Both the position numbers and the translations under genes were made by a program. A DNA stretch of 64,000 nucleotides from IMG/VR virus record IMGVR_UViG_2507262055_000001; one strand, written 5' to 3'. Positions 26,507 through 47,811 of the stretch are shown here, piece after piece. Position 1 is the first letter of the stretch; the number at the start of each line of letters is the position of its first letter. The notes under the pieces are model-generated. The model did not search any database. It worked only from the letters and a program-made list of their open reading frames with translations, and had not been told where the DNA came from. This DNA is from a virus (lineage: Duplodnaviria > Caudoviricetes).

Positions 26507-27136
26507 ATGAGTTTTGGCGACGAGACGGCTCCGAAGTCCAAGCGCGGCGGCAAACGCCCTGGCGCTGGCCGGAAGCCGAAGGGTCACAAGGCGACTTCGG
26601 CGCTGCCGGCACTCGATCTCGAGGCGGCCTTGGCGGCGCCGGCGCCCGACGACATCGAGTCGACCGCGCAGGCCTATTCCCGCGGCGCGATCGCCTCGCT
26701 GGTGAAGCAGCTCTGCCACGGCAAGAGCGAGTCCTCGAAGGTGAACGCGGCGAACGCCATCCTCGATCGAGGTTACGGCAAACCGTCAGTCGACATCGGC
26801 GGCCTCTCGCAGCTGTCGCTGTTCGGCGGCATTCGGCCGGCGGCCGTCGTCGGCGACGAGATCCGCGTCGAGGCGCGCAAGTACGCCAACCTGGCGATCG
26901 AGGTGCTGGGTTCGATCGCCACGCGCGGTGAAACCGAGAGCGCGAGGGTTTCGGCCGCGAAGTCGCTCCTCGATCGAGGAGTGGGAACGGTGCAGGTGGC
27001 CAAGGTGCCGGAAGGCTTGCAGCCAAAGGCGTTGGGTAAGAAGGAAGAGGCCGCCGTCGCCGCCCGCAATGCTGCGGCCGGGAAATATGCTCCGCCTGCT
27101 GCGCCGGGCTCACGTAGGGTTGAGACCGTTCAGTGA
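26507..27136 (+). CDS. terS: Terminase small subunit (internally duplicated)
   Basis: N-terminal RGGKRPGAGRKPKG; lies directly upstream of terL with an overlap. Confidence 0.75.
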   Translation: MSFGDETAPKSKRGGKRPGAGRKPKGHKATSALPALDLEAALAAPAPDDIESTAQAYSRGAIASLVKQLCHGKSESSKVNAANAILDRGYGKPSVDIGGLSQLSLFGGIRPAAVVGDEIRVEARKYANLAIEVLGSIATRGETESARVSAAKSLLDRGVGTVQVAKVPEGLQPKALGKKEEAAVAARNAAAGKYAPPAAPGSRRVETVQ

Positions 27137-29273: not shown

Positions 29274-30659
29274 ATGGGAATCCTCGCGCGCGTGACGTCC
29301 GACCAGCGCTATCCTGGTGCTGCTCGCGTCTCGAATCCCATCCGCACGCTTGCTGGCGTCGCGATCACGCCGGACACCGCAATCACCAGCGCGACCGTTT
29401 GGGCATGCATCCGCTATCTGTCGCAGACGGTGGCTGTGCCGCCGTGGCACGTAAAGAAGGATGGGAAGAACGGCCCGGAGATCCAGTCCTCGCACGGCGT
29501 CGACTACCTGTTGTGGAAGCGGCCGAGCAGAGAGTGGTCTTCGTTCCAGTTCAGAGAGACGCTGACGCATTGGGCACTCCGCTGGGGAAACGGTTATGGG
29601 GAAATCGAGCCTGATCAGCTTGGGCGTCCGTTTGCGATGTGGCCCATCCATCCCGAGCGGGTCACGGTCTACCGGGCAATCGAACCTGCCGAAGATGCAT
29701 ATGGCACGGTTATTGAGACCGGGGATCTGTACTACGAGGTCGACACCCGCGGCGAGACGCAGGGTCCGCGGACGATCCTCGCCGCTGCCAACATGTTCCA
29801 TATCCGCGGCTTTGGCGAAGGCCCCGTCGGCGTCAACGTAATTTCCTATGCGGCGCAGTCGCTCGGTTGGGCCCGGGCGGCGCAGTTGTTCGGCGCATCC
29901 TTCTTCGGCAACGGCATGAATCCCGCCGGCGTGGTCGTCAACAAGAAGCCATTGAAGCCGGATGGATTGAAGCGCCAGAAAGCGGAATTCGAGCAGCTCT
30001 ACAAGGGCCCGAACAATGCCAACCGCACGGCATTCCTCGATAACGATGCCGACTGGAAAGCGATCGGCTTCAACGCGCGTGATGCGCAGCTGATCGACGT
30101 TCACCAGTTCCTGATCGAAGAACAATGTCGATGGTTCGGTGTGCCGCCGCACAAGGTCATGCACCTGTTGCGCGCGACCTTCACCAACATCGAGAGCCAG
30201 GGCATCGAAGTCGTGGTCGATTCCATCTCCCCTTGGGTGAAGCGCTTCGAGGATGAGGCCGAATACAAATTGTTCGGCCAGAACCGCCAGAGGCTTTACA
30301 CCAAGATCGACATGCGGGGCCTGATGCGGGGCGACATGGCGGCGCGCGTAGCCTACTACCAGGCCATGGTCGGCATCGGGGCCTATTCGCCGAACCGCGT
30401 GCTCGAGCTCGAGGACGAGAACACGATCGGGGCGGATGGCGATATCCACGTGATGCAGTCGCAGAACGTGACGCTGGAGCGCATCGCCGATGGCACTGCG
30501 ACGGCCGCGGCCGCACCTGGTTCAACGCCAGCTGAGCCGGCCGAGCCAGATGATCCGGCGACGCCGCCAGAAGTCGGCGAGGATGAAGAAACGCAGGCGC
30601 GGATGGCCCGGAGGCTTTACGCGATCGAGCAGCTGATGGGCGAGCCCACGCATGTCTAA
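29274..30659 (+). CDS. HK97-family portal protein
   Basis: VWACIRYLS, LRWGNGY, WPIHPERV, FHIRG, FFGNG, GVPPHK, NIESQ, SPNRVLELED. Confidence 0.95.
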   Translation: MGILARVTSDQRYPGAARVSNPIRTLAGVAITPDTAITSATVWACIRYLSQTVAVPPWHVKKDGKNGPEIQSSHGVDYLLWKRPSREWSSFQFRETLTHWALRWGNGYGEIEPDQLGRPFAMWPIHPERVTVYRAIEPAEDAYGTVIETGDLYYEVDTRGETQGPRTILAAANMFHIRGFGEGPVGVNVISYAAQSLGWARAAQLFGASFFGNGMNPAGVVVNKKPLKPDGLKRQKAEFEQLYKGPNNANRTAFLDNDADWKAIGFNARDAQLIDVHQFLIEEQCRWFGVPPHKVMHLLRATFTNIESQGIEVVVDSISPWVKRFEDEAEYKLFGQNRQRLYTKIDMRGLMRGDMAARVAYYQAMVGIGAYSPNRVLELEDENTIGADGDIHVMQSQNVTLERIADGTATAAAAPGSTPAEPAEPDDPATPPEVGEDEETQARMARRLYAIEQLMGEPTHV

Positions 30660-31719
30660 GGTCCCCGTCATGCTCGCGCGCGGCGAAACGCCGCCGCTCG
30701 AGAAGCCGGTCTCGCTGCTTGAGCGCACTATCGCTCTGGTGGAGCGGCTCGTCGGCCGCGTCAGTGCGCTCGAGCAGAAGCCGCTCGGCCGCGATGGTCG
30801 CGATGGTATCCAGGGCGAACGCGGCGCCGCGGGCGAAGCAGGACCGCGCGGCGAGGCCGGGCCGATCGGCGAGCGTGGTGAGCAAGGCCCGCGCGGCGAG
30901 GCCGGTCCAGCCGGTGAACAGGGGCTGGCCGGCGACCGCGGCGAAGCCGGTCCGCAAGGTGATCACGGTCCCGCTGGCGAGCCCGGCGAAGCTGGTCCGC
31001 AGGGCGCGCGCGGCGAGCCAGGTGAGCGTGGTGAGACCGGACCGCAGGGTGATCAGGGCCCGGCCGGTGAACGCGGCGAAGCCGGCCGGCAGGGTGAGCG
31101 CGGCGAGGCAGGCGAGCGTGGTGAGGCCGGACCGCAGGGCGACGCCGGACCAGCCGGTGAGCGCGGCGAAGTCGGTCCGCAAGGCGAAGCTGGCCCGCGT
31201 GGCGAGCGTGGCGACATCGGTCCTCGGGGCGAGATCGGCCCTGTCGGCGAACGAGGTACGGCCGGAGAAGCTGGCCCGACCGGCGAGCAGGGTCCCGAAG
31301 GCCAAATCGGCCGCGACGGTCGCGACGGTTTGCCGGGCATCCAGGGCGAGCGAGGCCCCCATGGCGAGGCCGGCGCGATCGGCCCGCAAGGTGAAGCCGG
31401 TCCGCGCGGTGAAACCGGCGAGCCTGGTCCGCGTGGTGAAGGCGGTCCGATGGGCCCGCAAGGCGATCAAGGACTCCCGGGCCCGCGCGGCGAGCGCGGC
31501 GAGGCCGGTCCCCGCGGTGAACAGGGATTGCAGGGCCCGATCGGCAAGCAAGGCCCGCGCGGCGAGGCTGGTCCGATCGGCCAGCGGGGCGAGCCTGGTG
31601 CGAACATCGAGATCGGCGACGTCTTCCGTGCCGGCATCACGTCGAAGGACCTGGATCGCCTTATGGTCCGCGAGATCACCGTCAATGGCGAGACCTTTCA
31701 GGTCCTCGTTCCGAATTGA
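30652..31719 (+). CDS. Collagen-like protein (~90 uninterrupted Gly-X-Y triplets)
   Basis: Gly every third residue from GRDGRD to GEPGA; short coiled-coil N-terminus and short globular C-terminus. Confidence 0.9.
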   Translation: MSKVPVMLARGETPPLEKPVSLLERTIALVERLVGRVSALEQKPLGRDGRDGIQGERGAAGEAGPRGEAGPIGERGEQGPRGEAGPAGEQGLAGDRGEAGPQGDHGPAGEPGEAGPQGARGEPGERGETGPQGDQGPAGERGEAGRQGERGEAGERGEAGPQGDAGPAGERGEVGPQGEAGPRGERGDIGPRGEIGPVGERGTAGEAGPTGEQGPEGQIGRDGRDGLPGIQGERGPHGEAGAIGPQGEAGPRGETGEPGPRGEGGPMGPQGDQGLPGPRGERGEAGPRGEQGLQGPIGKQGPRGEAGPIGQRGEPGANIEIGDVFRAGITSKDLDRLMVREITVNGETFQVLVPN

Positions 31720-31727
31720 GGTCTGAT

Positions 31728-32465
31728 ATGAGCAAGCGCTTTCCGATCTTCAACGCCGTCGTGCCGATCAAGGCCAAGCCAACCGCCGGCGCCAAGCCGA
31801 GCGGCTATCGCGTTGTCGCCAACAAGGCGACCAATAGCGCCGAGATCTACGTCTACGGCGTGATCGGCGGCGACTGGTTCGGAGAGGGCGTGACCGCCAA
31901 GCAGTTTGCCGACGATCTCAAGGCGCTCGGCAACGTCAAGACCATCGACCTTCGGATCAACTCCGAAGGCGGTTCAGTGTTCGACGGCAAGGCGATGTAC
32001 TCGCTCCTCAACGAGCACAAGGCCAAGAAGATCGTGCACATTGACGGGCTGGCGGCGAGCGCTGCCTCGTTCCTGGCGATGGCCGGCGACGAGATCGAGA
32101 TTGCCGAAGGCGCCTTCGTGATGATCCACAACGCCTACACCATTGCGATGGGCGATGCGCGCGAGCTGCGACGCTCGGCCGAGATGCTCGACACCGTCAA
32201 CAACACCATCATCGACGTCTATGCGGCGCGCACCAAGGGCGATCGCAAGAAGATCACGCAAATGATGAACGACGAGACCTGGATGACCGGTGCGGAAGCC
32301 GTCGAGAACGGCTTTGCCGATCGCATGGTCGAGAATCTGAAGATCGCCGCCTGCGTCAGCAACGCAAAGGCGCTCGAGACCTTCAAGAAGGTCCCAGCAT
32401 CGCTGAAGCCGAACAACCGCCGCGCCGCTGCCGCCTTTGCGCGCATCGCGGCGCTGAAGACCTGA
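31728..32465 (+). CDS. ClpP-type (S14) prohead maturation protease
   Basis: INSEGGSVFDG, GLAASAASF (Ser), MIHNA (His), ETWMTGAEAVENGFAD. Confidence 0.93.
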   Translation: MSKRFPIFNAVVPIKAKPTAGAKPSGYRVVANKATNSAEIYVYGVIGGDWFGEGVTAKQFADDLKALGNVKTIDLRINSEGGSVFDGKAMYSLLNEHKAKKIVHIDGLAASAASFLAMAGDEIEIAEGAFVMIHNAYTIAMGDARELRRSAEMLDTVNNTIIDVYAARTKGDRKKITQMMNDETWMTGAEAVENGFADRMVENLKIAACVSNAKALETFKKVPASLKPNNRRAAAAFARIAALKT

Positions 32466-32593: not shown

Positions 32594-34063
32594 ATGACCA
32601 TGAAGAGCGCCCTTCTGGGCGAAACGAGAATGCTCGCTTTGCTGTCGACCTCGCGCCTGGCCGCACTTGCGGCGGTCGGTGCGATGTCGATCGGCATGAT
32701 CCGGATGGACACCGCCGGCAACACGCTTCCCGAGCTCGAGGCGCGCGCCGTCGAGATCAACGCGGCGCTCGATGCCTTCCGCGTTCGCGCTGAGGCCGGC
32801 GAGGATCTCACCGACGAAGAGACCGACGAGATTGAGGCCACCGCCGGTGAGCTCGAGAAGCTCAACAAGAAGATCAAGGCGATGAAGCTGCTGCAGCCCA
32901 CGGGTCAGGGCCGCCGCAGCTCGCCGGAGGCGCGGACCGAACCTGCCGCCGGCGGCCGCCGCACCGTGCCGGCCGAGCCGCGGCAGGATGCCCAGCGCAT
33001 GGGCTTCCGCTCGTTCGGCGAGTTCGCGCAGACGGTGCAGAACCATTACCGCGGTAACGTGAATGATCAAGTCACGCGCCTCCGCAACGCCGCGACAACC
33101 TTCGGCAATGAAGGTGTCGGCGCCGATGGCGGCTTCCTGATCCCCCCGTCGTTCTCCGCCAACATCTGGCAGAAGGTCAACGGCATCGAGAGCCTGCTGT
33201 CGCGTTGCACGCCGCTGACCACTGACGGGAACAGCCTCACGATTCCGAAGGACGAGGTCACGCCTTGGGACACCACCAAGGGTGTGCAGGTCTACTGGGA
33301 GGGTGAGGGCCAGCAGATCCCGCAGTCCAAGGGCCTTTACGAAATGGGCCAGCTGCGTCTCTCCAAGCTGTCGGCCCTGGTGCCGATCAGCGAAGAGATG
33401 ATGCAGGACGCTTCGGGCCTCGAGTCCTGGCTGAATGCCAAGGCGCCGCAGAAGATGACCTCGAAGATCAACACCGCGATCGTCGCCGGCACCGGCGCCG
33501 GTCAGCCGCTCGGCATGATCCCGGGCTATGGTGCGGTCGGTGCGTCCGTCATCCAGGTCTCGAAGGAAACCTCGCAGCCCGCTGCTACCGTCTGGTTCGC
33601 CAACATCAACAAGATGTGGGGCCGGATGTACGCCGGGTGGCGCAGCAACGCGATCTGGCTGGTCAACCAGGACGTCGAGCCGCAGCTCGAAGGCATGGCG
33701 TTTGTCGGCAACGGCATCACGCCGACGGCGGCGTCGTCGACGCCGGTCTATCTGCCGCCCGGTGGCCTCAACGACGCGCCGTATGCGCGCCTCAAGGGCC
33801 GTCCGGTCGTGCCGATCGAGGCGTGCTCCGCACTCGGCAATCTGGGCGACATCATCCTCTGCGATCTGAGCCAGTACTGGGCCCTGACCAAGGCGGGTGG
33901 TGCGATCCAGACCGACACCAGCATCCATCTCTACTTCGACCAGGCGCTGACGGCGTTCCGCTTCATCTTCCGGGTGAACGGTCAGCCCGCCTGGTCGGCG
34001 CCGATCACGCGCCAGAACGGCAGCAACACGCTGTCCTGGGCCGTCACGCTGCAGGCGCGCTGA
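32594..34063 (+). CDS. HK97-fold major capsid protein
   Basis: Coiled-coil delta domain, DGGFLIP, WEGEG, KLSALVPISEEMMQD, LKGRPVV, GDIILCDLSQY. Confidence 0.93.
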   Translation: MTMKSALLGETRMLALLSTSRLAALAAVGAMSIGMIRMDTAGNTLPELEARAVEINAALDAFRVRAEAGEDLTDEETDEIEATAGELEKLNKKIKAMKLLQPTGQGRRSSPEARTEPAAGGRRTVPAEPRQDAQRMGFRSFGEFAQTVQNHYRGNVNDQVTRLRNAATTFGNEGVGADGGFLIPPSFSANIWQKVNGIESLLSRCTPLTTDGNSLTIPKDEVTPWDTTKGVQVYWEGEGQQIPQSKGLYEMGQLRLSKLSALVPISEEMMQDASGLESWLNAKAPQKMTSKINTAIVAGTGAGQPLGMIPGYGAVGASVIQVSKETSQPAATVWFANINKMWGRMYAGWRSNAIWLVNQDVEPQLEGMAFVGNGITPTAASSTPVYLPPGGLNDAPYARLKGRPVVPIEACSALGNLGDIILCDLSQYWALTKAGGAIQTDTSIHLYFDQALTAFRFIFRVNGQPAWSAPITRQNGSNTLSWAVTLQAR

Positions 34064-34151: not shown

Positions 34152-34694
34152 ATGGACTTCAACCAGCACTTCTGTGAAAAGAACCAGATCGCGCAGGGCT
34201 TGCTGCCGGTTCTGATGAACACCGCGGCCAACAACGGCGACTGGGTCAGCATGAAGGGCTACGGCCGCATGGCGATCCTGGTCTTCAAGGCCGTCGGCAC
34301 CGCCGGCGACGATCCCACCATCACCATCAAGCAGGCGACCGACGTATCCGGTACCGGCGCGAAGGCGCTCGGCTTCACCGAGGTCCGCAAGAAGCAGGCC
34401 ACGCCGAATCTGCTGGCGGTCGACCAGTTCACCAAGTCCACCGTCGCGTCTCCCGCGACCAACGACACCTTCAACACGACGAACGGCACCTGGACGAATA
34501 CGGATCTCGCCGAGCAGGCCGCGATCATCGTCATCGACATCAAGGCCGAGGATCTCGACGTCAACGGCGGCTTTGACTGCATCCAGGTCTCGATCGCCGA
34601 CATTGGCACCAACGCCCAGCTCGGCTCCGCGCTCTACTTCGGGCACGAGCCGCGCTACCCGAAGGATGCACTCGACTCCATGATCGTCGACTGA
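34152..34694 (+). CDS. Probable head decoration/cement protein
   Basis: Directly after the capsid gene; beta-rich NNGDWVSMKGY...DLDVNGGFDCIQVSIAD pattern. Confidence 0.6.
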   Translation: MDFNQHFCEKNQIAQGLLPVLMNTAANNGDWVSMKGYGRMAILVFKAVGTAGDDPTITIKQATDVSGTGAKALGFTEVRKKQATPNLLAVDQFTKSTVASPATNDTFNTTNGTWTNTDLAEQAAIIVIDIKAEDLDVNGGFDCIQVSIADIGTNAQLGSALYFGHEPRYPKDALDSMIVD

Positions 34695-34723: not shown

Positions 34724-34751
34724 AAAGCCCCGCCATCGCGCGGGGCTTTTT
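34724..34751 (+). terminator. Intrinsic (bidirectional-type) terminator after the capsid and decoration genes
   Basis: AAAGCCCCGC-CATCGC-GCGGGGCTTTTT. Confidence 0.85.
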
Positions 34752-34793
34752 CGCGTCTAGGGTATAGGGCAGTTTTCAAAACCGGAGCCGATC

Positions 34794-35174
34794 ATGAAGA
34801 TCCAGTTCGTTCAGCAGCACATCCTCCGCGGCGAAACGCGCGACAAGGACGTTGTCTTTGAGAAAGACCAGGTGGTCGATTTCGGCAAGGACCGCGTCGA
34901 AAACAGCTACGCGCAGGCGTACATCGATCGCGGCTATGCCGTCGAGTTCGACGAAGCTGGCGATCGCGTGCGCGAGAAGGGCAAGGCCGATACCACCAGG
35001 GCCGCAGCGAGGCTCGAAGCCCGCGGCAAGATCGTAATTCCGGACGATCTGTCGACGTTGGCCGATGCTGATCTGATCAATCTCGGCCGATCGGTCAGCG
35101 ACGACCAGGTCAAGACCAAGGATGATGCGCTGAAGGCGATCGAGACCGAGAAGGCTCGCCGCAACCCTACGTGA
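34794..35174 (+). CDS. Hypothetical head-region protein
   Basis: GGAG SD; C-terminal helix-extended-helix-like LSTLADADLINLG...KDDALKAI. Confidence 0.7.
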   Translation: MKIQFVQQHILRGETRDKDVVFEKDQVVDFGKDRVENSYAQAYIDRGYAVEFDEAGDRVREKGKADTTRAAARLEARGKIVIPDDLSTLADADLINLGRSVSDDQVKTKDDALKAIETEKARRNPT

Positions 35175-35509
35175 CGCCGGAAGGCGATCGGCTCGATCGC
35201 CACCTCCGGACCTCCATCACCGAGCTCTCCAAACCGAGCGAGCAAGCAACCATGCGCGGCATTCAGCGGCTGGCCAACGCGGCAGGCAATCTGATGAAGC
35301 AAGCGGACGCCGAGGCTGATGCCGCGGCGTCCGAGCTCGAGGCCGCCTATGCCGAGCAGGCCAGCGTCGCGAAGCGCTATTCGGCCTTCGCCAAGCAGGT
35401 CTCGCAGGCTTCGAAAGAGGCGCTCGATAATCTGAACCAGATCAGCAACGTCCCTTTGCCGGATGGGGACGGCTCCGAGAAGCCGCCCGGTTCGACGCCG
35501 GGCTCCTGA
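35171..35509 (+). CDS. Coiled-coil hypothetical protein
   Basis: Ala/Glu-rich heptads; GTGA overlap. Confidence 0.6.
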   Translation: MTPEGDRLDRHLRTSITELSKPSEQATMRGIQRLANAAGNLMKQADAEADAAASELEAAYAEQASVAKRYSAFAKQVSQASKEALDNLNQISNVPLPDGDGSEKPPGSTPGS

Positions 35510-35512
35510 TCC

Positions 35513-36055
35513 ATGATCGACCCGTCTGCGTTCATCCATGAGCGGGCGCTGGCCGATGCGAGCGTCAGCATCGGTGCGCGCAGTCGCGTCTGGCAGTTCG
35601 CGAGCGTCATTCGCGGGACCGTGCTGGGTGAGGACTGCACCGTGGCGTCCAGCGCCACGCTCGACGGGCCGGTGTTCGGGGATCGCTGCATCATCTCGCA
35701 GGGTGTGGCGATGGGGCCGGGGTTTCTGATCGGCGACGATGTCTTCATCGGCCCGAACGTCACGGTCTGCAACGACCGCTGGCCACGGACCTACAAAACG
35801 GGCTTCGACCTCAAGAAGTTTCAGTCCGGCTTCGTCACGGTGCGGATCCACAATTGGGTGAGCATCGGCGCCAATGCCGTCATCCTGCCGGGCGTCGTGC
35901 TCGGAAAGCGCGTGATGGTCGCTGCCGGCGCCGTAGTCGACCGCAATGTGCCGGCGGATTGTCTCTATACCCGCGGGGGCAAGATGCTGCCGCTGTCCGA
36001 GAAGCATGAGACCCGCTACGCGCGGGCGCGGATGCGCAAGGCACTCGAATGCTGA
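35513..36055 (+). CDS. Hexapeptide-repeat (left-handed beta-helix) sugar N/O-acyltransferase, WbpD/FdtC-like
   Basis: IHERALADASVSIGARSRVWQFA, IGDDVFIGPNVTVCND..P, SIGANAVILPGVVLGKRVMVAAGAVVDRNVP. Confidence 0.85.
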   Translation: MIDPSAFIHERALADASVSIGARSRVWQFASVIRGTVLGEDCTVASSATLDGPVFGDRCIISQGVAMGPGFLIGDDVFIGPNVTVCNDRWPRTYKTGFDLKKFQSGFVTVRIHNWVSIGANAVILPGVVLGKRVMVAAGAVVDRNVPADCLYTRGGKMLPLSEKHETRYARARMRKALEC

Positions 36056-36663
36056 CGGTCGCAACGTTGCTGTGGGATGCGAACGACGCCTCGCTGCCGT
36101 TCTCGCGATGCTACAACGAATCCTGGGTGCGCAAGCTCCACGACGGCTTCGACCGGAACCTGACGCAGCCGTTCCGCTTCGTGCTGTTTACCGATCGGGA
36201 ACGGCCGCTTCCGGCTCATATCGAGCAGGTCCGGATGAAGTCGAAGATGCCGGATTATTCGTCCTGCATCGAGCCGTATCGTTTTGGGGTGCCGATGATC
36301 CTGGTCGGGCTCGACACGATCGTCACCGGTAGCATCGACCACCTGGCGGACTATTGCCTGAACGCAGACACCATCGCGCTGCCGCGGGATCCGTTCTTTC
36401 CGGAGCATGCATGCAACGGCGTCGCACTGATCCCGGAGGGTCAACAGCACGTCTGGCGCAACCATCGCGGCGAAAACGACATGGATTGGATGCGGGCGCA
36501 GGATCACGTCTTCATCGACGACCTGTTTCCGGGGCAGGTCGTCAGCTTTAAGGGTCATGTCCGCGATCACGGACTTGGGGATGCCCGCATCGTCTATTTC
36601 CACGGCAACGACAAGCCGCACCAGCTGCCCAACGTGCCGTGGATCCAGGAGCATTGGCGATGA
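36049..36663 (+). CDS. GT-A fold glycosyltransferase-like protein (GT8-like)
   Basis: W..KL...FDRNLTQPFRFVLFTD, LDTIVTGSIDHL (DxD-region variant), C-terminal IVYFHGNDKPH. Confidence 0.75.
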   Translation: MLTVATLLWDANDASLPFSRCYNESWVRKLHDGFDRNLTQPFRFVLFTDRERPLPAHIEQVRMKSKMPDYSSCIEPYRFGVPMILVGLDTIVTGSIDHLADYCLNADTIALPRDPFFPEHACNGVALIPEGQQHVWRNHRGENDMDWMRAQDHVFIDDLFPGQVVSFKGHVRDHGLGDARIVYFHGNDKPHQLPNVPWIQEHWR

Positions 36664-36977
36664 TCACCTATATGCAGAATTCTCATCTGCGTGATCGCAG
36701 GGCGGTAGTCGAGATTAATCCGACTCTTATCGCCGAATGCGTTCCGGTCTTAGTCGATGCGGGCTTCAAGATCGTCGGCAGCGCGACGTCTCGCGGCCTG
36801 CCCATCGAAGTCGTTCGTCTCATCATTGAGGGCGACGCACTGCCGGCCGAGTGTGATGGCGCGCATGGCTTGCTACTGGTTAGCCTGACCGTGCAGCAGG
36901 AGCAGTATGGCCGCCAGCGGATCACGCGCGTAAAGGATGTCGCCCTCGTCAGGGGCGCCGAGGCCGTCACCGCATGA
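36660..36977 (+). CDS. Hypothetical protein (AT-richer insert)
   Basis: ATGA-coupled on both sides. Confidence 0.6.
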   Translation: MITYMQNSHLRDRRAVVEINPTLIAECVPVLVDAGFKIVGSATSRGLPIEVVRLIIEGDALPAECDGAHGLLLVSLTVQQEQYGRQRITRVKDVALVRGAEAVTA

Positions 36978-37630
36978 CCGTGGCTGCCTCACGCGAATTC
37001 GAATACTGGTCGCCCGAGCCCCTGTTCAAGGGCGAGACGATCTTCTGCCTGGCGTCGGGCCCGGGCCTGACCGCGGAGATATGCCAGCGGATCCGCGGGC
37101 GCCGGGCCATTGCCATCAATTCGAGCGCCGTGCTTGCGCCCTGGGCCAGCGTGCTGTTCTTCACCGATTCCGGCTGGTACGAGCCGCGGCGCGAGCTGGT
37201 GGCGAACTGGGCCGGCCTGGTGGTGTCGATGTCGCGGACTGCGAAGCGCGAGCTTCCCGACAAGGTCAAGCGGGTGCAGGGGGAGGGCGACCCCCAGGCG
37301 CTGCCGGGCTTCAGCCGCGGCCCTCACGTCATCCAGCAGGGCCGATCGAGCGGTCATACCGCGGTGAGCCTGGCGATCGCGCTGGGCGCTTCGCGAGTGG
37401 TGTTGCTCGGCTATGACATGCGCTTCGTCGGCGGCCGCGAGCACTGCCACGACGAGTACAAGGGGGCGGCTCGCGATGTCGAAATCTACAGCCGCGAGTT
37501 CGTACCGGGCTTTGCCGGCTGGGATGAGGCCGCGCGCGCAGTCGGCGTCGAGGTCGTCAACGCGACCGAGGGCAGCGCGGTGAAGGAATTTCGGTTTGCC
37601 AAGCTCGAGGAGATCTTGAATGCCCCGTAG
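36974..37630 (+). CDS. DUF115/Maf-like (sialyltransferase-type fold) glycosyltransferase-like protein
   Basis: TIFCLASGPGL, IAINSS...LFFTD, SSGHTAVSLAIALGASRVVLLGYDM, VEVVNAT. Confidence 0.7.
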   Translation: MTVAASREFEYWSPEPLFKGETIFCLASGPGLTAEICQRIRGRRAIAINSSAVLAPWASVLFFTDSGWYEPRRELVANWAGLVVSMSRTAKRELPDKVKRVQGEGDPQALPGFSRGPHVIQQGRSSGHTAVSLAIALGASRVVLLGYDMRFVGGREHCHDEYKGAARDVEIYSREFVPGFAGWDEAARAVGVEVVNATEGSAVKEFRFAKLEEILNAP

Positions 37631-37997
37631 TCTCGCTCTTCTCGCTTCCGCGGCTTGCATTGCGCTCCTGTCGACTGAAGCGTTCGCCGCCAAATGCTAT
37701 GTGAGGGAATACGCGGCCGTCGGCGCCGTGACGCGCCAGGGCGGCGTCGCCTTGCAGGCTGCGGCCGAGCCGCCGATCGTCGATCAGGCCGCCGTCGACT
37801 TCACCAGCGGCCACGCGGAGTCGGCGGCCTTCAATTCCGAAACCCGCTACATCCGCGTGTGGTGCGATGCTCAGGCTTCGTACCAGACAGGGGCAGCTCC
37901 GGTCGCGACCAACGCGATGTCGCCCCTCACGGCGGCGTTTCCGGAGTATTTCGGCGTGACGCCGGGCCACAAGATCTCCGTCGTCGCCAATCCCTGA
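37620..37997 (+). CDS. Small beta-rich virion-type protein with signal peptide
   Basis: MPRSLALLASAACIALLSTEAFA/A; SAAFNSETRYIRV...EYFGVTPGHKISV pattern. Confidence 0.7.
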   Translation: MPRSLALLASAACIALLSTEAFAAKCYVREYAAVGAVTRQGGVALQAAAEPPIVDQAAVDFTSGHAESAAFNSETRYIRVWCDAQASYQTGAAPVATNAMSPLTAAFPEYFGVTPGHKISVVANP

Positions 37998-38006
37998 CGC
38001 CATCCG

Positions 38007-38255
38007 ATGAACTTGAAGCAATTACTCGCCGCCACGATCGGCGTCGCGCTGCTCCTGGGCGCGCTCAAGGCGCCCGAGGTCTATGCGTTCGGCATGGGCC
38101 GCGAAGGCGCGAGCTTTGGCAGGATGGGTGCGATCGTGAAGAAGCAGAGCGGCGGAGCTGGCGCGAACACCGGCAGCATCCTGCTGGTCGATGGATCGTC
38201 GTTCCTGCTGCAGGTCGACGGGACGAGCCGTGTCTGCCTAGCTGGAGGCTGCTGA
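38007..38255 (+). CDS. Small signal-peptide protein
   Basis: MNLKQLLAATIGVALLLGALKAPEVYA/F; C-terminal ILLVDGSSFLLQVDG repeat and a Cys pair. Confidence 0.7.
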   Translation: MNLKQLLAATIGVALLLGALKAPEVYAFGMGREGASFGRMGAIVKKQSGGAGANTGSILLVDGSSFLLQVDGTSRVCLAGGC

Positions 38256-38258
38256 GCC

Positions 38259-40076
38259 ATGAGATTATCCTGGAAATCGCTTGCGGTCGCAACCGCGCTG
38301 ATCGGGCTGTCGCCAGCGGCTCATGCCGCGAATAGTGCCGTGCCGGCTATGACCGCCGCGACTTCCGTGGTCGGGACGGATCTGCTCTACTGCATCCAGT
38401 CGAGCGGCACCCTAGATCGAAAGTGCACGCCAGCCCAGATGGCCGCGTACATCTACGGCCTGACCAGCGGCGACGCGACGATCAACGGCACGGGCGCGGT
38501 GACGTTCGCCACGGTGAACGCCAACGTCGGTGCGTTCGGGTCTGCCACGCAATGCGTCGCTCACACGGTGAACGCCAAGGGCCTGATCACGGCCACTTCG
38601 GCGGTGACCTGCACGCCTGCAATTGGCAGCCTGACCGGCACGGGTACTGGCGTTATCACTGCCCTGGGTGTCAACGTGGGCACCGCAGGCTCTGTCGTCG
38701 TCAACGGCGGCGCGCTCGGCACGCCGTCCTCCGGCACTGCCACGAACCTGACGGGCACCGCCGCTGGCCTCACGGCCGGCAACGTCACGACCAACGCAAA
38801 CCTGACCGGCGCTGTGACATCGAGCGGCAACGCTACCTCGCTCGGATCGTTCACTAGCGCGCAACTCCTTGCCGCCCTGACGACCAAAACCGGCAGTGGT
38901 AGCGCTGTGTTCGGTACCGCGCCGACGATTGACAGCCTGAACGCCACGACCGCCATGACGCTGGCATGGATCACGGGCTCGACGCAGTGTTTGCAGGTCA
39001 ACACGTCCGGCGTTGTGAGCGGCACCGGCTCGGGTTGCGGCGGCTCCGGCTCGACCGGCGCGAACCCGACCGCTACCGCCGGCCCTACGGCCAACAACGG
39101 CGTCGCCACCACATTCATGCGGTCGGATGCTAGCCCTGCTGTGCAGCAGGGCAGCGCCTCGCAAAAGGGCATCGTTCAGGTTGACGGCACGACACTCCTG
39201 GCTTCGTCCGGCGTCATCAGCGCCGCGCCAACGACGGTCGCAACCAGCGTCCAGACTGGTGCGAATTATCCGTTCTTGACGGGCGACCAAGCGAAGCTTG
39301 TCTACCTCAACAACGCCAGCAATCAGGTGCCGACAATTCCGCAGGCCGGCACCACTGGCTTTGCTGCAAGCTGGTTTGTTCAAGTCTGCAACATCGGCGC
39401 AGGCACTCAGACAATCACACCGACCATCTCAACCATAGGGGGCGCAGCCAGCTATCTGTTGCCGGCGGCATCCGCGGCTGATCCTGCTTGCGTCGCCGTC
39501 GTGTCTGATGGCAGCAACTACGTGATAGCTCCTGACTTCACAAAGGATGCCTCCAGGTTTTCTGCGGGTGTGTTGGCCGCCGCGCGAGGCGGTGCCGGTA
39601 CTATTACTGGCGCTCTGAAGGCGAACGGTTCGGGCGTTGTCTCCCAGGCAGCCTGCGCCGATCTGTCGAATGCACAGACCGGCTGCTCCACTGCGACCGG
39701 CACGTCTGGCGGGACGCTGCCGCTGCTCAATGGCGCGAACACTTGGTCCGCTACGCAAACCTTCGGGCCGGTGGTCGGTACCGTCACTACGCAATCGGGC
39801 ACCACCTACACCTTCGCATCGAGCGATTGCGGCACAACGGTTCGCTTCTCCAATGCAGGCGCAGTGACTGCGACGATTCCTCAAGGCTTGCCTGTGGGTT
39901 GCAACATCGCCGTCATGCAGGCCGCAGCCGGTCAGGTGTCTGTCAACGGCTCTGCGGTAACCCCTGCCACGTTGCAGAGCGCGCACAGCTACACCAAGAC
40001 ATTCGGGGCAGGCGCAATCATCGGCCTCTTCAATGACGCCACCAATCATGTGGTGTTGACGGGGGATGGCGCATGA
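38259..40076 (+). CDS. Fibre-like Thr/Gly/Ser/Ala-rich protein with signal peptide (putative head fibre)
   Basis: MRLSWKSLAVATALIGLSPAAHA/A; LGTPSSGTATNLTG repeat; 12 Cys in six local pairs. Confidence 0.75.
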   Translation: MRLSWKSLAVATALIGLSPAAHAANSAVPAMTAATSVVGTDLLYCIQSSGTLDRKCTPAQMAAYIYGLTSGDATINGTGAVTFATVNANVGAFGSATQCVAHTVNAKGLITATSAVTCTPAIGSLTGTGTGVITALGVNVGTAGSVVVNGGALGTPSSGTATNLTGTAAGLTAGNVTTNANLTGAVTSSGNATSLGSFTSAQLLAALTTKTGSGSAVFGTAPTIDSLNATTAMTLAWITGSTQCLQVNTSGVVSGTGSGCGGSGSTGANPTATAGPTANNGVATTFMRSDASPAVQQGSASQKGIVQVDGTTLLASSGVISAAPTTVATSVQTGANYPFLTGDQAKLVYLNNASNQVPTIPQAGTTGFAASWFVQVCNIGAGTQTITPTISTIGGAASYLLPAASAADPACVAVVSDGSNYVIAPDFTKDASRFSAGVLAAARGGAGTITGALKANGSGVVSQAACADLSNAQTGCSTATGTSGGTLPLLNGANTWSATQTFGPVVGTVTTQSGTTYTFASSDCGTTVRFSNAGAVTATIPQGLPVGCNIAVMQAAAGQVSVNGSAVTPATLQSAHSYTKTFGAGAIIGLFNDATNHVVLTGDGA

Positions 40077-40966
40077 TCCGAGCAATTCTAGCGTGGCTCA
40101 TGCTGTGTTCGGGGGCTGCCGCGCAAGTTGGGCAGATGCCGAACATTGCTCAGTTGCAGCCTGCATCGGCCGCATATGCCGGGCCGGGCGATGTCGTCGC
40201 GAGCGCCTCCGGGTGGTGGGGCTTTCGAGCCTACAGCGCCGCCAAAAAGGGCACCAAGGCGATAAACGTCTGCAACGTGAGTGACGTTGCTTGCGCCGAC
40301 ATGAACACGGACGCCATAACTGGCGCGCTCGTCATCACCCTTGTGGGCGGGTCAGATTGCAGTTCTGTCACGTGCACGATCAAGACCGTTTATGACCAGA
40401 GCGGCGGCACGAATTGCAGCGCTGCGGCTTGCGATCTGACCAATTCGACGATCGCCAATCGGCCCACGCTGCAAACAAACTGCGCCAACGGTCAGCCTTG
40501 CGCTGTGTGCAATGGCGCGTCCTCGCAAAAGCTAGCGAACACATCGGCGCCGACGCTCGCGCAGCCTATCAGTGGTGCCTATGTTGGTGCTCGGACGGGC
40601 ACGTTTACGACGGGAGGCGGCTTGCTCTCTTCCGCCTCGACAGGTTTAATCGCTGGCTTCGCGCCAAGCACAAATACATTCCGGATCTTCAACGGAACGT
40701 CTCTACCGGCGACGGCGTCAGACTCTACTGTCCATTCGTTTCAGACGGTTTCAAATAACACGTCGAGCGTCGTAGTTGTCGATGGATCGGCAACTAGCGG
40801 TACGTCCAGCACTGGCGGCATCGCTACAAATCTGGATATCTGCAATTCAAATGGAAGTTTTCTGACCGGCCAATGGATGGAGGCCGGCTTCTGGACTGTT
40901 GCGTTCACCAGCACGCAATACGGAAACTTGCGGCTAAACCAGAAGGGATTTTGGAATACGCCATGA
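40073..40966 (+). CDS. Concanavalin/arabinofuranosidase-B-like beta-sandwich (lectin-like) protein with signal peptide
   Basis: MIRAILAWLMLCSGAAA/Q; GWWGFRAYSAA...KTVYDQSG...RPTL pattern; 10 Cys in the mature part. Confidence 0.65.
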   Translation: MIRAILAWLMLCSGAAAQVGQMPNIAQLQPASAAYAGPGDVVASASGWWGFRAYSAAKKGTKAINVCNVSDVACADMNTDAITGALVITLVGGSDCSSVTCTIKTVYDQSGGTNCSAAACDLTNSTIANRPTLQTNCANGQPCAVCNGASSQKLANTSAPTLAQPISGAYVGARTGTFTTGGGLLSSASTGLIAGFAPSTNTFRIFNGTSLPATASDSTVHSFQTVSNNTSSVVVVDGSATSGTSSTGGIATNLDICNSNGSFLTGQWMEAGFWTVAFTSTQYGNLRLNQKGFWNTP

Positions 40967-43900
40967 AGAAAGTAGTAGCTGTACTTTTTAGCGCTGTGCT
41001 TGTCGTGCTGCTGCTGTCGCCCGCGCTTGCGTTTATACGCGGCCAGCAGTCAGGGTTCAGCGGTGGCCGCACGCAGATTGGGCTCAATGGCATCGGCTTC
41101 ACCGGCGAGGGGATGTACCTGAACATCCTTAAAATATCCGGCAATTGGAACTGGGCAGACAACGCGAGCGGTGGCCCCGGCCCCGACATGCTGGACTCGA
41201 ACGGTTATCCGATTTTCAAATCGACGTACCTGGGGAATAGTTGCGGGTCTGGTGGCATCTGCCACGGCGGCATCAAGACCGTCACGGAGGTGCCCCCGTG
41301 TGCGACGCGTTCATGCTCCTATGTGCCGATCTCTACAGGGACGTGCACCTGGTCGGTCTCAGGTTCCGGCAGCATGTCGGTGAGCGGTGTTAACACGGTT
41401 GGGGCGACCTTCACTGCAACACCAACATTCCTAAGCAATCTGAACGCGTCGCAGGTTACGTTCCAGATTACGGCGACCGACGCCACCACGCCATGCACGA
41501 GCCTGGCCGTCGTCCATGTCGATGACGTGGTAGGAGCCGATTTCACCAACTATACGACCAAGGCCGGCACTGCGGTCGGCAAGTTCGGCTCGAAATTTTT
41601 GTCGCGGTTAGTCCAGGCAAAATTTGCCGTGATCCGTTTCATGAACTCGCAGAACACAAATGCGTCGAACGTGACCAGATGGGAAGATCGGACCCCGCAG
41701 AACTACGTTTTTTACAACGCCTACACGTACAATGCCGCCTATTACACAGGGGCCTCGACCAACAGCGGCACTTTGGGGAACGACTTTGCGGTCTCGCTTG
41801 GAAGCGGAGGCCCGGTCGATAAGCAGCCCTTGCACGTTCTCATAGGGCCCGATGGCAAGGCGACTTCTACGGGATCGACGATCTCCGGCAGCGTTCTGAC
41901 CGTGGCTGGCTACACTGGCGGGACGTATGCCGTAGGCCAGCGTCTATCAGGGACTGGCGTTGACGCAAATCTTTATATTGCTTCCCTCGGAACGGGCACC
42001 GGCCAAAATGGCACGTACAACCTCTCGCAATCCGCCAGCACGGTTGCCGTGGGGCAGAGCATCACAGGTTGGTACGGAACGAGAGTGGTCGGAACGACGG
42101 CTGCAAGCTGCTCTTTGTCGTGGCCTGCACATGGCGTAAGCGTAAACGACCCGATAGGGTTTTATTCCAGCGGCACCATTGCCGACAGCCTGCCCTTTTA
42201 TTCCGGTGGCAATTATTACGTCGTGAGCGTGCCTGACGCTGACCACGTTACCGTATCGAACACGGTTGGAGGTACGTGTCTCCAGGCCGCTGTAACCAGA
42301 CCTTCATCCACAATCGCGATCAGACAACCGACGCTGAGCCTCAACGGCTCGACCCCGATCACCATTAAGAATATGTACAGCAATACGCTGACAGGGCCGA
42401 ACGCAATCTCGGGCGCGAACACGGAAAATCCGGAGAGTGGTCGAATCGGAACCTTTGTCTACGATGACGATCTGAAGTCTTATTTGATGTTCGGCGGGAC
42501 ACAGGGTGACGGGCTTTTCAACCAAGGCATCATCAACGGCATTCCGATCGAAGACTGTCTGCTGCTCGCCACATACGTGGGCGCTCATCCATGGTTTGTG
42601 CAGCCGTTTTTGACGTCGAACGCATCTGCGGGGGCGGCGTATCCGAACTGGATCAATGGCCTCGCTACGTACCTGAAGGCCAATATGCCGGCTTGGATGA
42701 TTCCGCGCATCGAGCCCGTCGTTAATGAGGACTGGAACTCGCTTTTCTATGGCACCAGCTACTCCAACAACAAAGCCAGTGTCTACTGGGGAACGCCAAC
42801 GTCTCCTAACCTGAACGATTACAATAACTATTATGGATACGCCGCGTCTTTGAGTGGGCAGGCAGTCAATGCTGTTTTCGGTGGCTCAGTGCCTAGGGAC
42901 GGCAAGAGATACCAAGTCCCGATTGGCGTGCAGCAGACTAGCAGCCCGTCATCGAATGACGCGCGCCTTGCGTCTACCAAGTTTCTAAGCTCCGGCCCAA
43001 CGCCGCCAGCAGGGTTTGTTCAAGAGGCCGCCTACAAGTGGGTTACGCATGAGGCCCCCGCGAATTACTACGGTCTTAGCCTCGGTGCCGCTGCTCTTGT
43101 CCAGACGGCTTACCTATACAGCACGGGCGACGCCACCCAACTCACGTCCTATGTGGCCAGCACCGGGTTGAGCAACCCGCCTAACGGCGGATCGATCCCG
43201 GTCAAAGTTGCTTCTTTCCTTGACCATTATCAGTGGGGGCAGGGCACCGGAGCCTACACAGGCAAGCCATGGGCACTTGACGGAATCGCTATTCGACAGA
43301 CCGCTTATGAAGGCGGCTGGTCTCCCCCTTATGTGCAAAACACCGTGCCTGGCACGCTGGATTTCACAACCAGTTCGGCCAGCGTCAATTCATCCTCCCC
43401 GGTCACATCGGTCAGCAAAGCGGCAGCAGCCGTGCTCGCGATGCCGACGACAACGACTCCTTTCGGCACGGTCCCAAATACCGGCAACGGCGCCGTGGTG
43501 GGAATGCCCATCCGCATCGTCAATGCGGCCGGCGGCGACTTCACCAAGCTGAACAGTTCGCGCCAGACCGTCACATTCACAAACAGCTCGTGCGATATTT
43601 CGCTGACGGCGAACGGGTACGTTGCCAACGAGGCGGCTGTGTTCAACACCAGCGGTTCGCTGGGAGCGTCGCTGACTGCTGGAGCGGCCTATTTCATCGT
43701 TAACCCGACGACCAATGCTTTCCAAGTGTCGCTCACAAAGGGGGGCTCGTGCATCTCGATCAACACAGCGGGAATATCTGGAAGCAATCAGGTGACGCCC
43801 GGCTGGTTTGTCAATGGCGTTGGCGGCGCGCTCGGTGCGAACAATATCAGCCTTGATGTCGATACCAGCGCGTACACCGGGACTTACGCTGCCAGCAGCG

Positions 43901-44160
43901 CGTCGGCGGTCTACATCAACGATGGCAACAACAATTCGATGATAATGTTGGCGTCGCTGTCAGCCAGCAACGCCGGCTCATTCTTGGCGGGGAATGGCTC
44001 TGCATTCTACGATCAGCTTATTGCCAACGGATGCGAATTTCCGTCTCAGTTCGATATGGCGGGCAACAACGCCACGTTACCGTGGTCCCCGCTTTATCCG
44101 AACGTCTACGTGACACCCGACCCGTCCTATTGGACTGCGATCTCAGCCTACAATCACTGA
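40963..44160 (+). CDS. Large signal-peptide protein with clan GH-A-like glycoside hydrolase motifs and inserted beta-repeat domains
   Basis: MKKVVAVLFSAVLVVLLLSPALA/F; IRFMN..NTN, GIPIE, HPWF, VNEDWN (acid/base-like) and AYEGG (nucleophile-like). Confidence 0.65.
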   Translation: MKKVVAVLFSAVLVVLLLSPALAFIRGQQSGFSGGRTQIGLNGIGFTGEGMYLNILKISGNWNWADNASGGPGPDMLDSNGYPIFKSTYLGNSCGSGGICHGGIKTVTEVPPCATRSCSYVPISTGTCTWSVSGSGSMSVSGVNTVGATFTATPTFLSNLNASQVTFQITATDATTPCTSLAVVHVDDVVGADFTNYTTKAGTAVGKFGSKFLSRLVQAKFAVIRFMNSQNTNASNVTRWEDRTPQNYVFYNAYTYNAAYYTGASTNSGTLGNDFAVSLGSGGPVDKQPLHVLIGPDGKATSTGSTISGSVLTVAGYTGGTYAVGQRLSGTGVDANLYIASLGTGTGQNGTYNLSQSASTVAVGQSITGWYGTRVVGTTAASCSLSWPAHGVSVNDPIGFYSSGTIADSLPFYSGGNYYVVSVPDADHVTVSNTVGGTCLQAAVTRPSSTIAIRQPTLSLNGSTPITIKNMYSNTLTGPNAISGANTENPESGRIGTFVYDDDLKSYLMFGGTQGDGLFNQGIINGIPIEDCLLLATYVGAHPWFVQPFLTSNASAGAAYPNWINGLATYLKANMPAWMIPRIEPVVNEDWNSLFYGTSYSNNKASVYWGTPTSPNLNDYNNYYGYAASLSGQAVNAVFGGSVPRDGKRYQVPIGVQQTSSPSSNDARLASTKFLSSGPTPPAGFVQEAAYKWVTHEAPANYYGLSLGAAALVQTAYLYSTGDATQLTSYVASTGLSNPPNGGSIPVKVASFLDHYQWGQGTGAYTGKPWALDGIAIRQTAYEGGWSPPYVQNTVPGTLDFTTSSASVNSSSPVTSVSKAAAAVLAMPTTTTPFGTVPNTGNGAVVGMPIRIVNAAGGDFTKLNSSRQTVTFTNSSCDISLTANGYVANEAAVFNTSGSLGASLTAGAAYFIVNPTTNAFQVSLTKGGSCISINTAGISGSNQVTPGWFVNGVGGALGANNISLDVDTSAYTGTYAASSASAVYINDGNNNSMIMLASLSASNAGSFLAGNGSAFYDQLIANGCEFPSQFDMAGNNATLPWSPLYPNVYVTPDPSYWTAISAYNH

Positions 44161-47169: not shown

Positions 47170-47811
47170 ATGAGATCGATCGTTACGGTTGCCAGTCCAG
47201 CTTCGGACACGGCGTTGACAACGCTGGAGCGGGTGAAGCTCGAGCTCGGCATCCCGGATTCCAATACCGCCAGCAACGAGGTCCTGCAGGAGAAGATCGA
47301 CGAGGCCTCGGATGATATCGAGGCCGCTCTCGGCTTCCGCCTGGTGCGGGAGACCGCGGTGGAGACCTTCTGGCACGAGCAATATGACAGCGCGCCGGAG
47401 AAGCTCGTCCTGGACCGGACGCCGGTGGCTTCGATCACGAGCGTGGTGGTCGATGGGGTCGCGATCGACGCCTCGACCTGGCGGCTCGATCCGAACACGG
47501 GTGAGCTGTTTGCGCTCTGCAACGGCTATCCGAGCGTCTGGTTGTTCTTGCAGAGCATCGTCGTGAGCTATGGTGGTGGGTATATCCTGCCGCCGGCGAG
47601 CAACCGGACTTTGCCGAAGGGGATCGAGGGTGCGTGCGTGGCGCTGGTGTCGAGCTTCTGGGCGGCGCGTGGGCGGGATCCGACGCTGCGGTCCGAAGAG
47701 ATTCCGGATCTGATCAGCGCGACGTACTGGGTCGGGGCCGTCGGCGAAGATGGCGAGCTGCCGCCCGACATCGTCGCCAAGCTGGCGCCGTTCCGCAGGG
47801 CGATCGCATGA
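47170..47811 (+). CDS. Head-tail connector (gp6-like adaptor)
   Basis: LTTLERVKLELG...IDEASDDIE, LDRTPVASITSV, VSYGGGY...IEGACVALV. Confidence 0.85.
   Translation: MRSIVTVASPASDTALTTLERVKLELGIPDSNTASNEVLQEKIDEASDDIEAALGFRLVRETAVETFWHEQYDSAPEKLVLDRTPVASITSVVVDGVAIDASTWRLDPNTGELFALCNGYPSVWLFLQSIVVSYGGGYILPPASNRTLPKGIEGACVALVSSFWAARGRDPTLRSEEIPDLISATYWVGAVGEDGELPPDIVAKLAPFRRAIA

Follow-up and report, generated by a model that had tools for sequence, protein, structure and literature searches.

As far as we know, glycosylated virions have been demonstrated for no phages beyond a few actinobacteriophages, in which the modification shields the particles from antibodies; the mycobacteriophage case reportedly goes back to Freeman et al. 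2023. As summarised in two reports, mycobacteriophage Che8 and other members of cluster F1 use phage-encoded glycosyltransferases (GTs) to glycosylate capsid and tail-tube subunits as a shield (PMC11256854, PMC12619734). The locus described here lies at positions 35513-37630 (+) of a 64,000-nucleotide stretch of viral DNA (IMG/VR record IMGVR_UViG_2507262055_000001; hereafter the window) and encodes a cassette of three predicted sugar-handling enzymes, which an earlier note, made from the letters of this DNA, had interpreted as a virion O-glycosylation system. Homologues of the window's proteins are named Bradyrhizobium sp., which gives the source genus, and these matches identify the window as a prophage of Bradyrhizobium; for its host, a complete genome is available, in a single contig of 8.05 Mb. 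The three open reading frames (ORFs) are present exactly as first given, together with a fourth, small frame:

35513..36055, + strand: left-handed beta-helix (LbH) N-acetyltransferase (AcT), QdtC/FdtD/WlbB-like, 180 amino acids (aa); Pfam Hexapep 1.5e-20, phrog_5353 1.8e-29
36049..36663, + strand: GT-A glycosyltransferase (GT) of the GT8 (glycogenin/LgtC) fold, 204 aa; phrog_1962 'glycosyltransferase' 2.4e-54
36639..36977, + strand: 112-aa ORF, no assigned function, between the GT and Maf-like genes
36974..37630, + strand: Maf-like ('MafL') single-domain protein of the Maf/CstII/MptE fold, 218 aa; phrog_4603 4.4e-52

The reading that we prefer is a late-expressed, cytoplasmic phage system that glycosylates a virion protein, and we put the chances of this at about even. 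Its support is the conserved placement of the genes among head genes, not the capsid, collagen-like and fibre targets that the earlier note had named. A literature search found no paper on these enzyme families in phages.

For all three proteins, the Pfam and PHROG matches and the superpositions of predicted models agree with the original assignments as a hexapeptide acyltransferase, a GT8-like GT-A enzyme and a Maf-like protein. Specifically, AcT belongs to the LbH nucleotide-sugar N-acetyltransferases of the QdtC/FdtD/WlbB class, with a hexapeptide repeat and sequence homology over ~140 aligned residues; its nearest sequence relatives in the Protein Data Bank (PDB) are 7s3u (8.9e-28), FdtD 4mzu (2.5e-27), WlbB 3mqg (3.2e-16) and QdtC 3fs8 (4.5e-8). 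These relatives modify nucleotide sugars at their 3-amino group, and the probable activity of AcT is N-acetylation at that group in a nucleotide-linked amino sugar. The 'acylated sugar' of the earlier note is thereby retained in a narrower form, the more fitting reading being an N-acetylated 3-amino sugar that arises at the level of the nucleotide sugar. A tRNA-Trp call by ARAGORN inside the AcT gene (35617-35697, +) is probably a false positive, with Rfam returning no tRNA at E <= 1.

The GT has no Pfam match at E <= 0.1, and thus none to Glyco_transf_8, and its assignment comes from structure. Its AlphaFold model, with a predicted local distance difference test (pLDDT) score of 96.3, superposes on glycogenin with Z 16.9 and a root-mean-square deviation (rmsd) of 2.7 Å over 184 of 204 residues at ~16% identity, and also on LgtC (Z 15.7), GlyE, AgtA and the structural-genomics GT8 protein 3tzt, all at Z >= 15.6, which places the modelled protein in the GT-A fold of glycogenin/LgtC type. 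Its alignment contains an invariant G87-L88-D89-T90, in which only the second Asp of the expected DxD is present (position matched by eye), and an invariant C-terminal H185-G-x-x-K189-P. The Maf-like model (pLDDT 93.9) finds its top structural match in residues 253-513 of Maf 5mu5 (Z 15.7, rmsd 3.7 Å, 191 of 218 residues), followed by CstII (Z 12.0), Cst-I (Z 11.5), the MptE HPPK (Z 10.9), SteA (Z 10.5) and thiamin pyrophosphokinase (Z 8.9). In this structural alignment against GT8, GT42 and Maf structures, the folds that the earlier note had recognized in the letters are therefore borne out, while phmmer and profile searches gave no sequence-level link of either the GT or the Maf-like protein to solved structures. 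Against Pfam PF01973 (MptE-like), the Maf-like protein scores 24.9 bits, under the gathering cut-off of 34.6, and many of its homologues carry a precomputed PF01973 match.

The evidence that carries the preferred reading comes from gene context in other phages. Relatives of the Maf-like protein occur in at least 540 IMG/VR contigs, and about 25 loci of the lineage have the gene order TerL, portal, (collagen-like), protease, capsid, g180, (small ORFs), an optional AcT-GT pair, Maf-like, head-tail adaptor and tail. By this comparison of sequences, the Maf-like gene is a conserved core gene of the region. In relatives, the head-tail adaptor gene stands directly 3' of the Maf-like gene, whereas in the window a 9.5-kb insertion lies between them. 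Only 3 of 151 Bradyrhizobium species genomes contain the Maf-like gene, which marks it as a mobile rather than a host housekeeping gene.

The same arrangement reaches well-studied phages. In Pseudomonas phage D3 (L106), the major head protein is followed by orf6.5/orf7 (Maf-like) and then by the adaptor Ad1; the homologues in D3 (orf6.5/orf7, 34.5% identity) and coliphage P1 (PmgO, 25.9%) align over ~89% of the query, and, unlike the window, neither phage has the AcT-GT pair at the corresponding place. Read in one frame, D3 orf6.5 and orf7 (L106 5400-6043) form a single Maf-like protein, and their published split looks like an annotation artefact. P1 pmgO is nonessential for plaque formation in CRISPR interference (CRISPRi) and deletion screens (PMC10695390), which fits an accessory modification. 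Jumbo phages of Caulobacter and Brevundimonas also have Maf-like homologues, as does Xanthomonas phage XacN1. In a stretch of XacN1 (L105, 261719-264341, ORF373-ORF375), the Maf-like ORF375 is accompanied by a 226-aa ORF and by a 438-aa protein whose C-terminal half is homologous to the GT, so that a GT homologue lies two genes from the Maf-like gene; three proteins of >1000 aa come after this stretch.

The AcT-GT pair has a distribution of its own. A search seeded with the GT yielded 80 viral loci, in every one of which (80/80) AcT lies directly upstream of the GT, while the Maf-like gene adjoins the pair in only ~30 of the 80. Immediately upstream of the pair stands an unrelated portal gene of phrog_145 type in 20 loci, a Maf-like gene in 22, and g180 or small ORFs in 9. 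Three PHROG contexts recur: TerL-portal-AcT-GT-scaffold; a different major head protein followed by AcT-GT and a virion structural protein; and a position among head-morphogenesis and scaffold genes. Specifically, in an unrelated lineage (L175:3288-8019, L228:4300-10052, L207:4230-8459), the portal gene is followed at once by AcT-GT, the genes overlapping by 4 nt, and a Maf-like gene is absent. Judged from these contexts, the cassette is composed of two separable modules, each of which is found repeatedly within head-morphogenesis gene sets of differing ancestry and which are sometimes joined.

The window itself fits this pattern, with the following neighbours on both sides of the cassette:

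26507-27136, + strand: small terminase
27133-29076, + strand: TerL
29274-30659, + strand: portal
30652-31719, + strand: collagen-like protein
31716-32465, + strand: ClpP-type protease
32594-34063, + strand: HK97-type capsid protein
34152-34694, + strand: g180, a conserved 180-aa post-capsid protein
34724-34752, + strand: intrinsic terminator after the capsid and g180 unit (sequence aaagccccgc...gcggggcttttt, read directly)
34794..35509, + strand: two small ORFs (126 and 112 aa), no assigned function, between terminator and cassette
37620-37997, 38007-38255, 38259-40076, 40073-40966 and 40963-44160, + strand: five consecutive ORFs with Sec-type signal-peptide-like leaders (by-eye reading)
47170..47811, + strand: head-tail adaptor gene (phrog_442 1.1e-28), after which the tail genes follow

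The earlier note had placed the cassette inside the head operon, and it does lie within the late structural operon, between the capsid and head-tail adaptor genes. Its claim that the three genes are chained by overlaps stands for AcT and GT, which overlap by 7 nt, and needs amendment further on, where the 3' end of the GT gene overlaps the intervening 112-aa ORF (36639-36977), which in turn shares 4 nt (ATGA) with the Maf-like gene. This ORF has no Pfam, PHROG or NCBIfam match and a homologue only in the closest viral contig (L014/L186), the GT gene abutting the Maf-like gene in other relatives; on this distribution, it lies outside the conserved core. All cassette junctions overlap or abut on the late strand, so that the genes are translationally coupled, and the same holds for the two small ORFs upstream, whose stops and starts overlap or abut and of which g126 recurs in 11 related loci and g112a in 5. 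A sequence scan found no promoter-like or terminator-like site within 35.1-37.7 kb, and the GC content of the cassette is the same as that of the head genes. Gene order and coupling thus place phage GT genes within the late structural operon and predict their co-expression with structural genes. None of the three cassette proteins shows a signal peptide or membrane segment in a by-eye reading of the translations, and all three enzymes are predicted to be soluble and cytoplasmic.

The placement also bears on the alternative that survives best, namely that the cassette acts on the cytoplasmic side of the inner membrane to modify a glycan of the host envelope, which could be the lipopolysaccharide (LPS) core, the O-antigen or an exopolysaccharide, either as serotype conversion in the lysogen or late in infection, thereby blocking superinfection or the adsorption of progeny to debris. 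We consider this unlikely. The nearest characterised relatives are indeed enzymes of LPS or lipooligosaccharide (LOS) synthesis (WlbB, QdtC and FdtD; LgtC and WbbM; CstII and Cst-I), but the membrane-anchored partners of the Gtr/Oac/Wzy type are absent. The PHROG class of the GT is 'moron, auxiliary metabolic gene and host takeover', and the host has large polysaccharide loci and six DegT aminotransferases; yet in unrelated phages both modules consistently belong to head-morphogenesis sets, where they are coupled to genes for the portal, capsid or adaptor. Exported proteins and morons do come after the cassette, but these downstream genes are not conserved with it. Lysogenic conversion genes normally adjoin integrase or immunity genes and have their own promoters, which makes a head-module placement hard to reconcile with lysogenic conversion; the cassette is not beside integrase or immunity genes, and no promoter of its own was detected. 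The recurrent placement thus favours a virion-linked role over serotype conversion.

A second alternative, which we regard as improbable, questions the Maf-like protein: it might not be a glycosyltransferase at all, acting instead as an MptE/TPK-like kinase or pyrophosphokinase or as a non-catalytic domain for head assembly or fibre anchoring, so that only the AcT-GT pair would handle sugars. Consistent with this, the fold also matches the MptE HPPK, SteA and thiamin pyrophosphokinase at the scores given above and the sole Pfam match is sub-threshold, but the catalytic domain of Maf clearly outscores every other structural match, and the GT42 sialyltransferases come next. Each module also occurs without the other, with many phages carrying the Maf-like gene and no AcT-GT pair, and the pair being found also where the Maf-like gene is missing; against this stands the repeated joining of the Maf-like domain to GT or methyltransferase domains and of its gene to the AcT-GT pair. 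Longer relatives include tandem duplications (P0241-P0247) and fusions to a PF04765 glycosyltransferase-like domain (P0249, P0252-P0254) or to methyltransferases (P0260). In about a dozen clusters (P0256-P0258, P0261-P0269), collagen G-X-Y repeats with PKD or laminin-G-like domains come after a Maf-like domain at the N-terminus, the position in which an anchor would be expected in a fibre-like protein. The family-wide motifs (SGPS, PWAD, D..WW, NSG, GxD, the His pair and an Asn) are nevertheless kept in distant and fused members, and such conserved polar motifs fit an active site and not a scaffold. As the fused domains retain them, they argue for an active enzyme that is physically tied to fibre-like proteins. 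Contigs with these fusions reach up to 45 kb, and a scan of viral contigs for their genomic context returned relatives of the C-terminal domains only.

A third possibility concerns the genes immediately downstream. The earlier note had described the cassette as running directly into Ser/Thr-rich fibre genes and had taken these as potential targets. The five-ORF block does adjoin the cassette and is Ser/Thr-rich in part; all of its members carry signal-peptide-like leaders and are absent from the closest relatives, with the exception of a small domain of g125, the first ORF. Homologues of g125 in other phages begin exactly after the predicted cleavage site (between AFA and AK), as if the leader had been added in this lineage. 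Three minus-strand morons sit after the signal-leader ORFs and before 47170, and from 40 kb on the GC content falls to 0.53-0.58, which suggests separate acquisition. By these features, the 9.5-kb block is an insertion specific to this lineage, made up of morons and of genes for predicted exported proteins, and no conserved partner of the cassette, and the five 'fibre' genes look exported rather than virion-built; as virion targets they are not supported. It is very improbable that the cassette instead glycosylates the exported proteins encoded at 38259-44160, as surface or secreted glycoproteins of the prophage before or during export, since these proteins, for all their 21-25% Ser/Thr, their 8-17 N-x-S/T sequons and their location on the same strand directly after the cassette, are missing even in the closest cassette-bearing relatives, appear by GC content to have been acquired separately, and have Sec-type leaders that would require soluble cytoplasmic transferases to act before Sec export of the unfolded chains.

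Glycosylation of a virion protein thus remains the preferred reading, and several observations weigh against it. The closest characterised relatives of the enzymes (WlbB, LgtC, CstII) build LPS, LOS or O-antigen and not protein glycans. The GT has a non-canonical G-L-D where, judged by eye, DxD is expected, and the Maf-like fold is common also to MptE, thiamin pyrophosphokinases and SteA; moreover, the protein corresponds to the central domain only, without the N-terminal Rossmann-like and C-terminal helical domains of true Maf. The terminator at 34724-34752, which is strong (a 10-bp GC-rich stem plus T run) and has a weak Rfam match to a terminator hairpin, divides the cassette from the capsid unit, so that the cassette and the tail genes downstream would need read-through or antitermination. 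On the acceptor side, the Maf-like gene is gained and lost without coupling to the collagen-like gene, the capsid protein lacks a Ser/Thr-rich tail like that of mycobacteriophages, g180 occurs also without the Maf-like gene, and none of the candidates examined is singled out as the virion acceptor. The case for virion glycosylation as first proposed is therefore divided: recurrent head-module placement in unrelated phages speaks for it, and the targets originally named are unsupported.

Among these targets, the collagen-like protein contains 4% Ser/Thr, and a raw association with the Maf-like gene (26/8/3/6) left no coupling once phylogeny was controlled on the capsid tree, with its 5-6 independent pairs, so that it was dropped as an obligate acceptor. 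More attention is due to g180, which follows the capsid gene in ~60 viral loci, is predicted to be co-transcribed with it in one unit upstream of the terminator, and is probably a capsid accessory protein. Its residues 94-113 form a Thr/Asn-rich loop that is the densest Ser/Thr window among the conserved head proteins, and this loop, with three tandem N-x-T sequons, is formed by a 10-residue insertion (SPATNDTFNTT) that one clade has and others do not. Loci with the long loop have AcT and GT in 10 of 15 cases, against 1 of ~30 with the short loop. As evidence for an acceptor, this association was rejected, since the loci with the long loop amount in essence to a single clade and one locus, L115, combines the loop with none of the enzymes; the loop is a candidate acceptor as a lead only. 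A further idea, that g180 is a cement protein of the Bbp16 type (Atlas lead 0.85), found no support from Pfam (23 members) or from hhalign against BPP-1 Bbp16 (probability 0.1). A fold search in BFVD gave uncharacterised viral proteins only.

True Maf and CstII enzymes use cytidine monophosphate (CMP)-nonulosonic acids. The host genome has no match to the NeuB family (PF03102), which makes a nonulosonic-acid donor, as the comparison with true Maf would imply, unlikely. It does encode one full KdsB-type cytidylyltransferase (CTP_transf_3). Elsewhere in the host, a weak N-terminal PF02348 match (7e-7; G000:C1:5903947-5904294, L109) lies inside a 577-aa open frame, which could encode a second CMP-sugar-type enzyme. 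In two sources, Maf enzymes are reported to be able to transfer 3-deoxy-D-manno-oct-2-ulosonic acid (Kdo) from CMP-Kdo (PMC11339370; bioRxiv 10.1101/2020.06.03.131540). With no NeuB in the host, a KdsB-type gene present and some Maf enzymes using it, CMP-Kdo would be a candidate donor for the Maf-like enzyme, provided that the donor class is conserved.

For AcT, the host genome has no FdtA/QdtA isomerase, so that its substrate is probably not dTDP-Qui3N or dTDP-Fuc3N. The six DegT aminotransferases of the host lie within its large polysaccharide loci, and none of them could be given a specific name, since all score below the NCBIfam equivalog cut-offs. The lipid A of all Mesorhizobium and of most Bradyrhizobium has a backbone of 2,3-diamino-2,3-dideoxyglucose (GlcpN3N), made via GnnA/GnnB (PMC7663294). 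As the genus makes its lipid A by this route, the precursor UDP-GlcNAc3N is a plausible substrate of AcT, which would give a 2,3-diacetamido sugar donor for the GT.

What is established comprises the folds of the enzymes, the order of the genes, their conservation within head modules and a host genome without NeuB, and it is from these that we infer the donors, the acceptor and the glycan itself. The data are compatible with a model in which, in the first module, AcT would N-acetylate a host-made, nucleotide-linked 3-amino sugar, which the GT8-fold enzyme would pass to the acceptor. In the second, the Maf-like enzyme would add another, probably acidic, sugar from a CMP-activated donor, likely CMP-Kdo. 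The acceptor would most likely be a virion protein made at the same time, either the capsid protein or a capsid-accessory protein, and the released particle would bear a glycan coat. That such a coat masks the particle or mimics host glycans, as the earlier note suggested, is speculation. A more far-reaching version, which we think improbable, holds that many phages of Gram-negative bacteria, including this prophage, D3 and P1, use a minimal, single-domain Maf-like enzyme to put Kdo from the universal CMP-Kdo pool of the host on head proteins, to which a subset would add a 2,3-diacetamido sugar from the lipid A precursor pool via AcT-GT8; if true, this would constitute a class of viral protein glycosylation that is widespread, has gone undescribed and draws on LPS precursors.

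Should virions be glycosylated by these enzymes, the trait would be common in phages of Gram-negative bacteria, where it would employ a different enzyme set (Maf-like, GT8-like and 3-N-acetyltransferase). The consequences would extend to phage therapy, through immune recognition and the stability of particles, to the way in which phages and hosts recognize each other in soil and rhizobial systems, and to the annotation of head-module genes that number in the hundreds and are now called 'hypothetical'. With homologues in P1 and D3, the question can be tested directly in standard laboratory systems.

Taken together, the locus resembles several known systems and coincides with none of them. With the mycobacteriophages it shares phage-encoded GTs; the virion glycan has been shown experimentally there and is proposed here from the genes, and both the host phylum and the enzyme families differ. 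In those phages, the GT genes are located towards the right end of the genome and the glycans are carried by C-terminal tails, whereas the genes of the window lie inside the head module and its capsid has no such tail. Serotype-converting prophages (Gtr, Oac, Wzy-beta) differ in another way, as the enzymes of the window show no membrane segments by eye, are sited between capsid and adaptor genes and have no promoter-like site.

The enzymes can be compared one by one with their nearest counterparts. The Maf flagellin O-glycosyltransferases, exemplified by that of Magnetospirillum magneticum (PDB 5mu5), have a central Maf_flag10 domain that matches the Maf-like protein, and both are cytoplasmic and soluble; the window protein has 218 rather than 632 aa, no flagellar gene context and a host without a nonulosonic-acid synthase. 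Campylobacter jejuni CstII and Cst-I, LOS sialyltransferases of CAZy family GT42, have the same fold and a similar size, but the Maf-like protein shows no sequence similarity to them that phmmer or a profile search against the PDB could detect; the acceptor of CstII is LOS, and its donor, CMP-N-acetylneuraminic acid (CMP-Neu5Ac), is unavailable in the window's host. An N-terminal G-P-S nucleotide-binding-like motif is, we assume, common to the Maf-like protein and CstII, and the former has a conserved His pair (H157/H159) in its alignment, a candidate counterpart of the CstII His base. QdtC, FdtC-FdtD and WlbB share the hexapeptide left-handed beta-helix and clear sequence homology with AcT, which is sited instead in a phage head module and without companion isomerase and aminotransferase genes. 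Finally, the GT8 enzymes glycogenin, LgtC, GlyE and Skp1 AgtA, several of which modify proteins or protein-linked glycans, have the same GT-A fold as the GT of the window, which differs from them in having no Pfam GT8 match, in its G-L-D where DxD would be expected and in being always paired with an upstream N-acetyltransferase.

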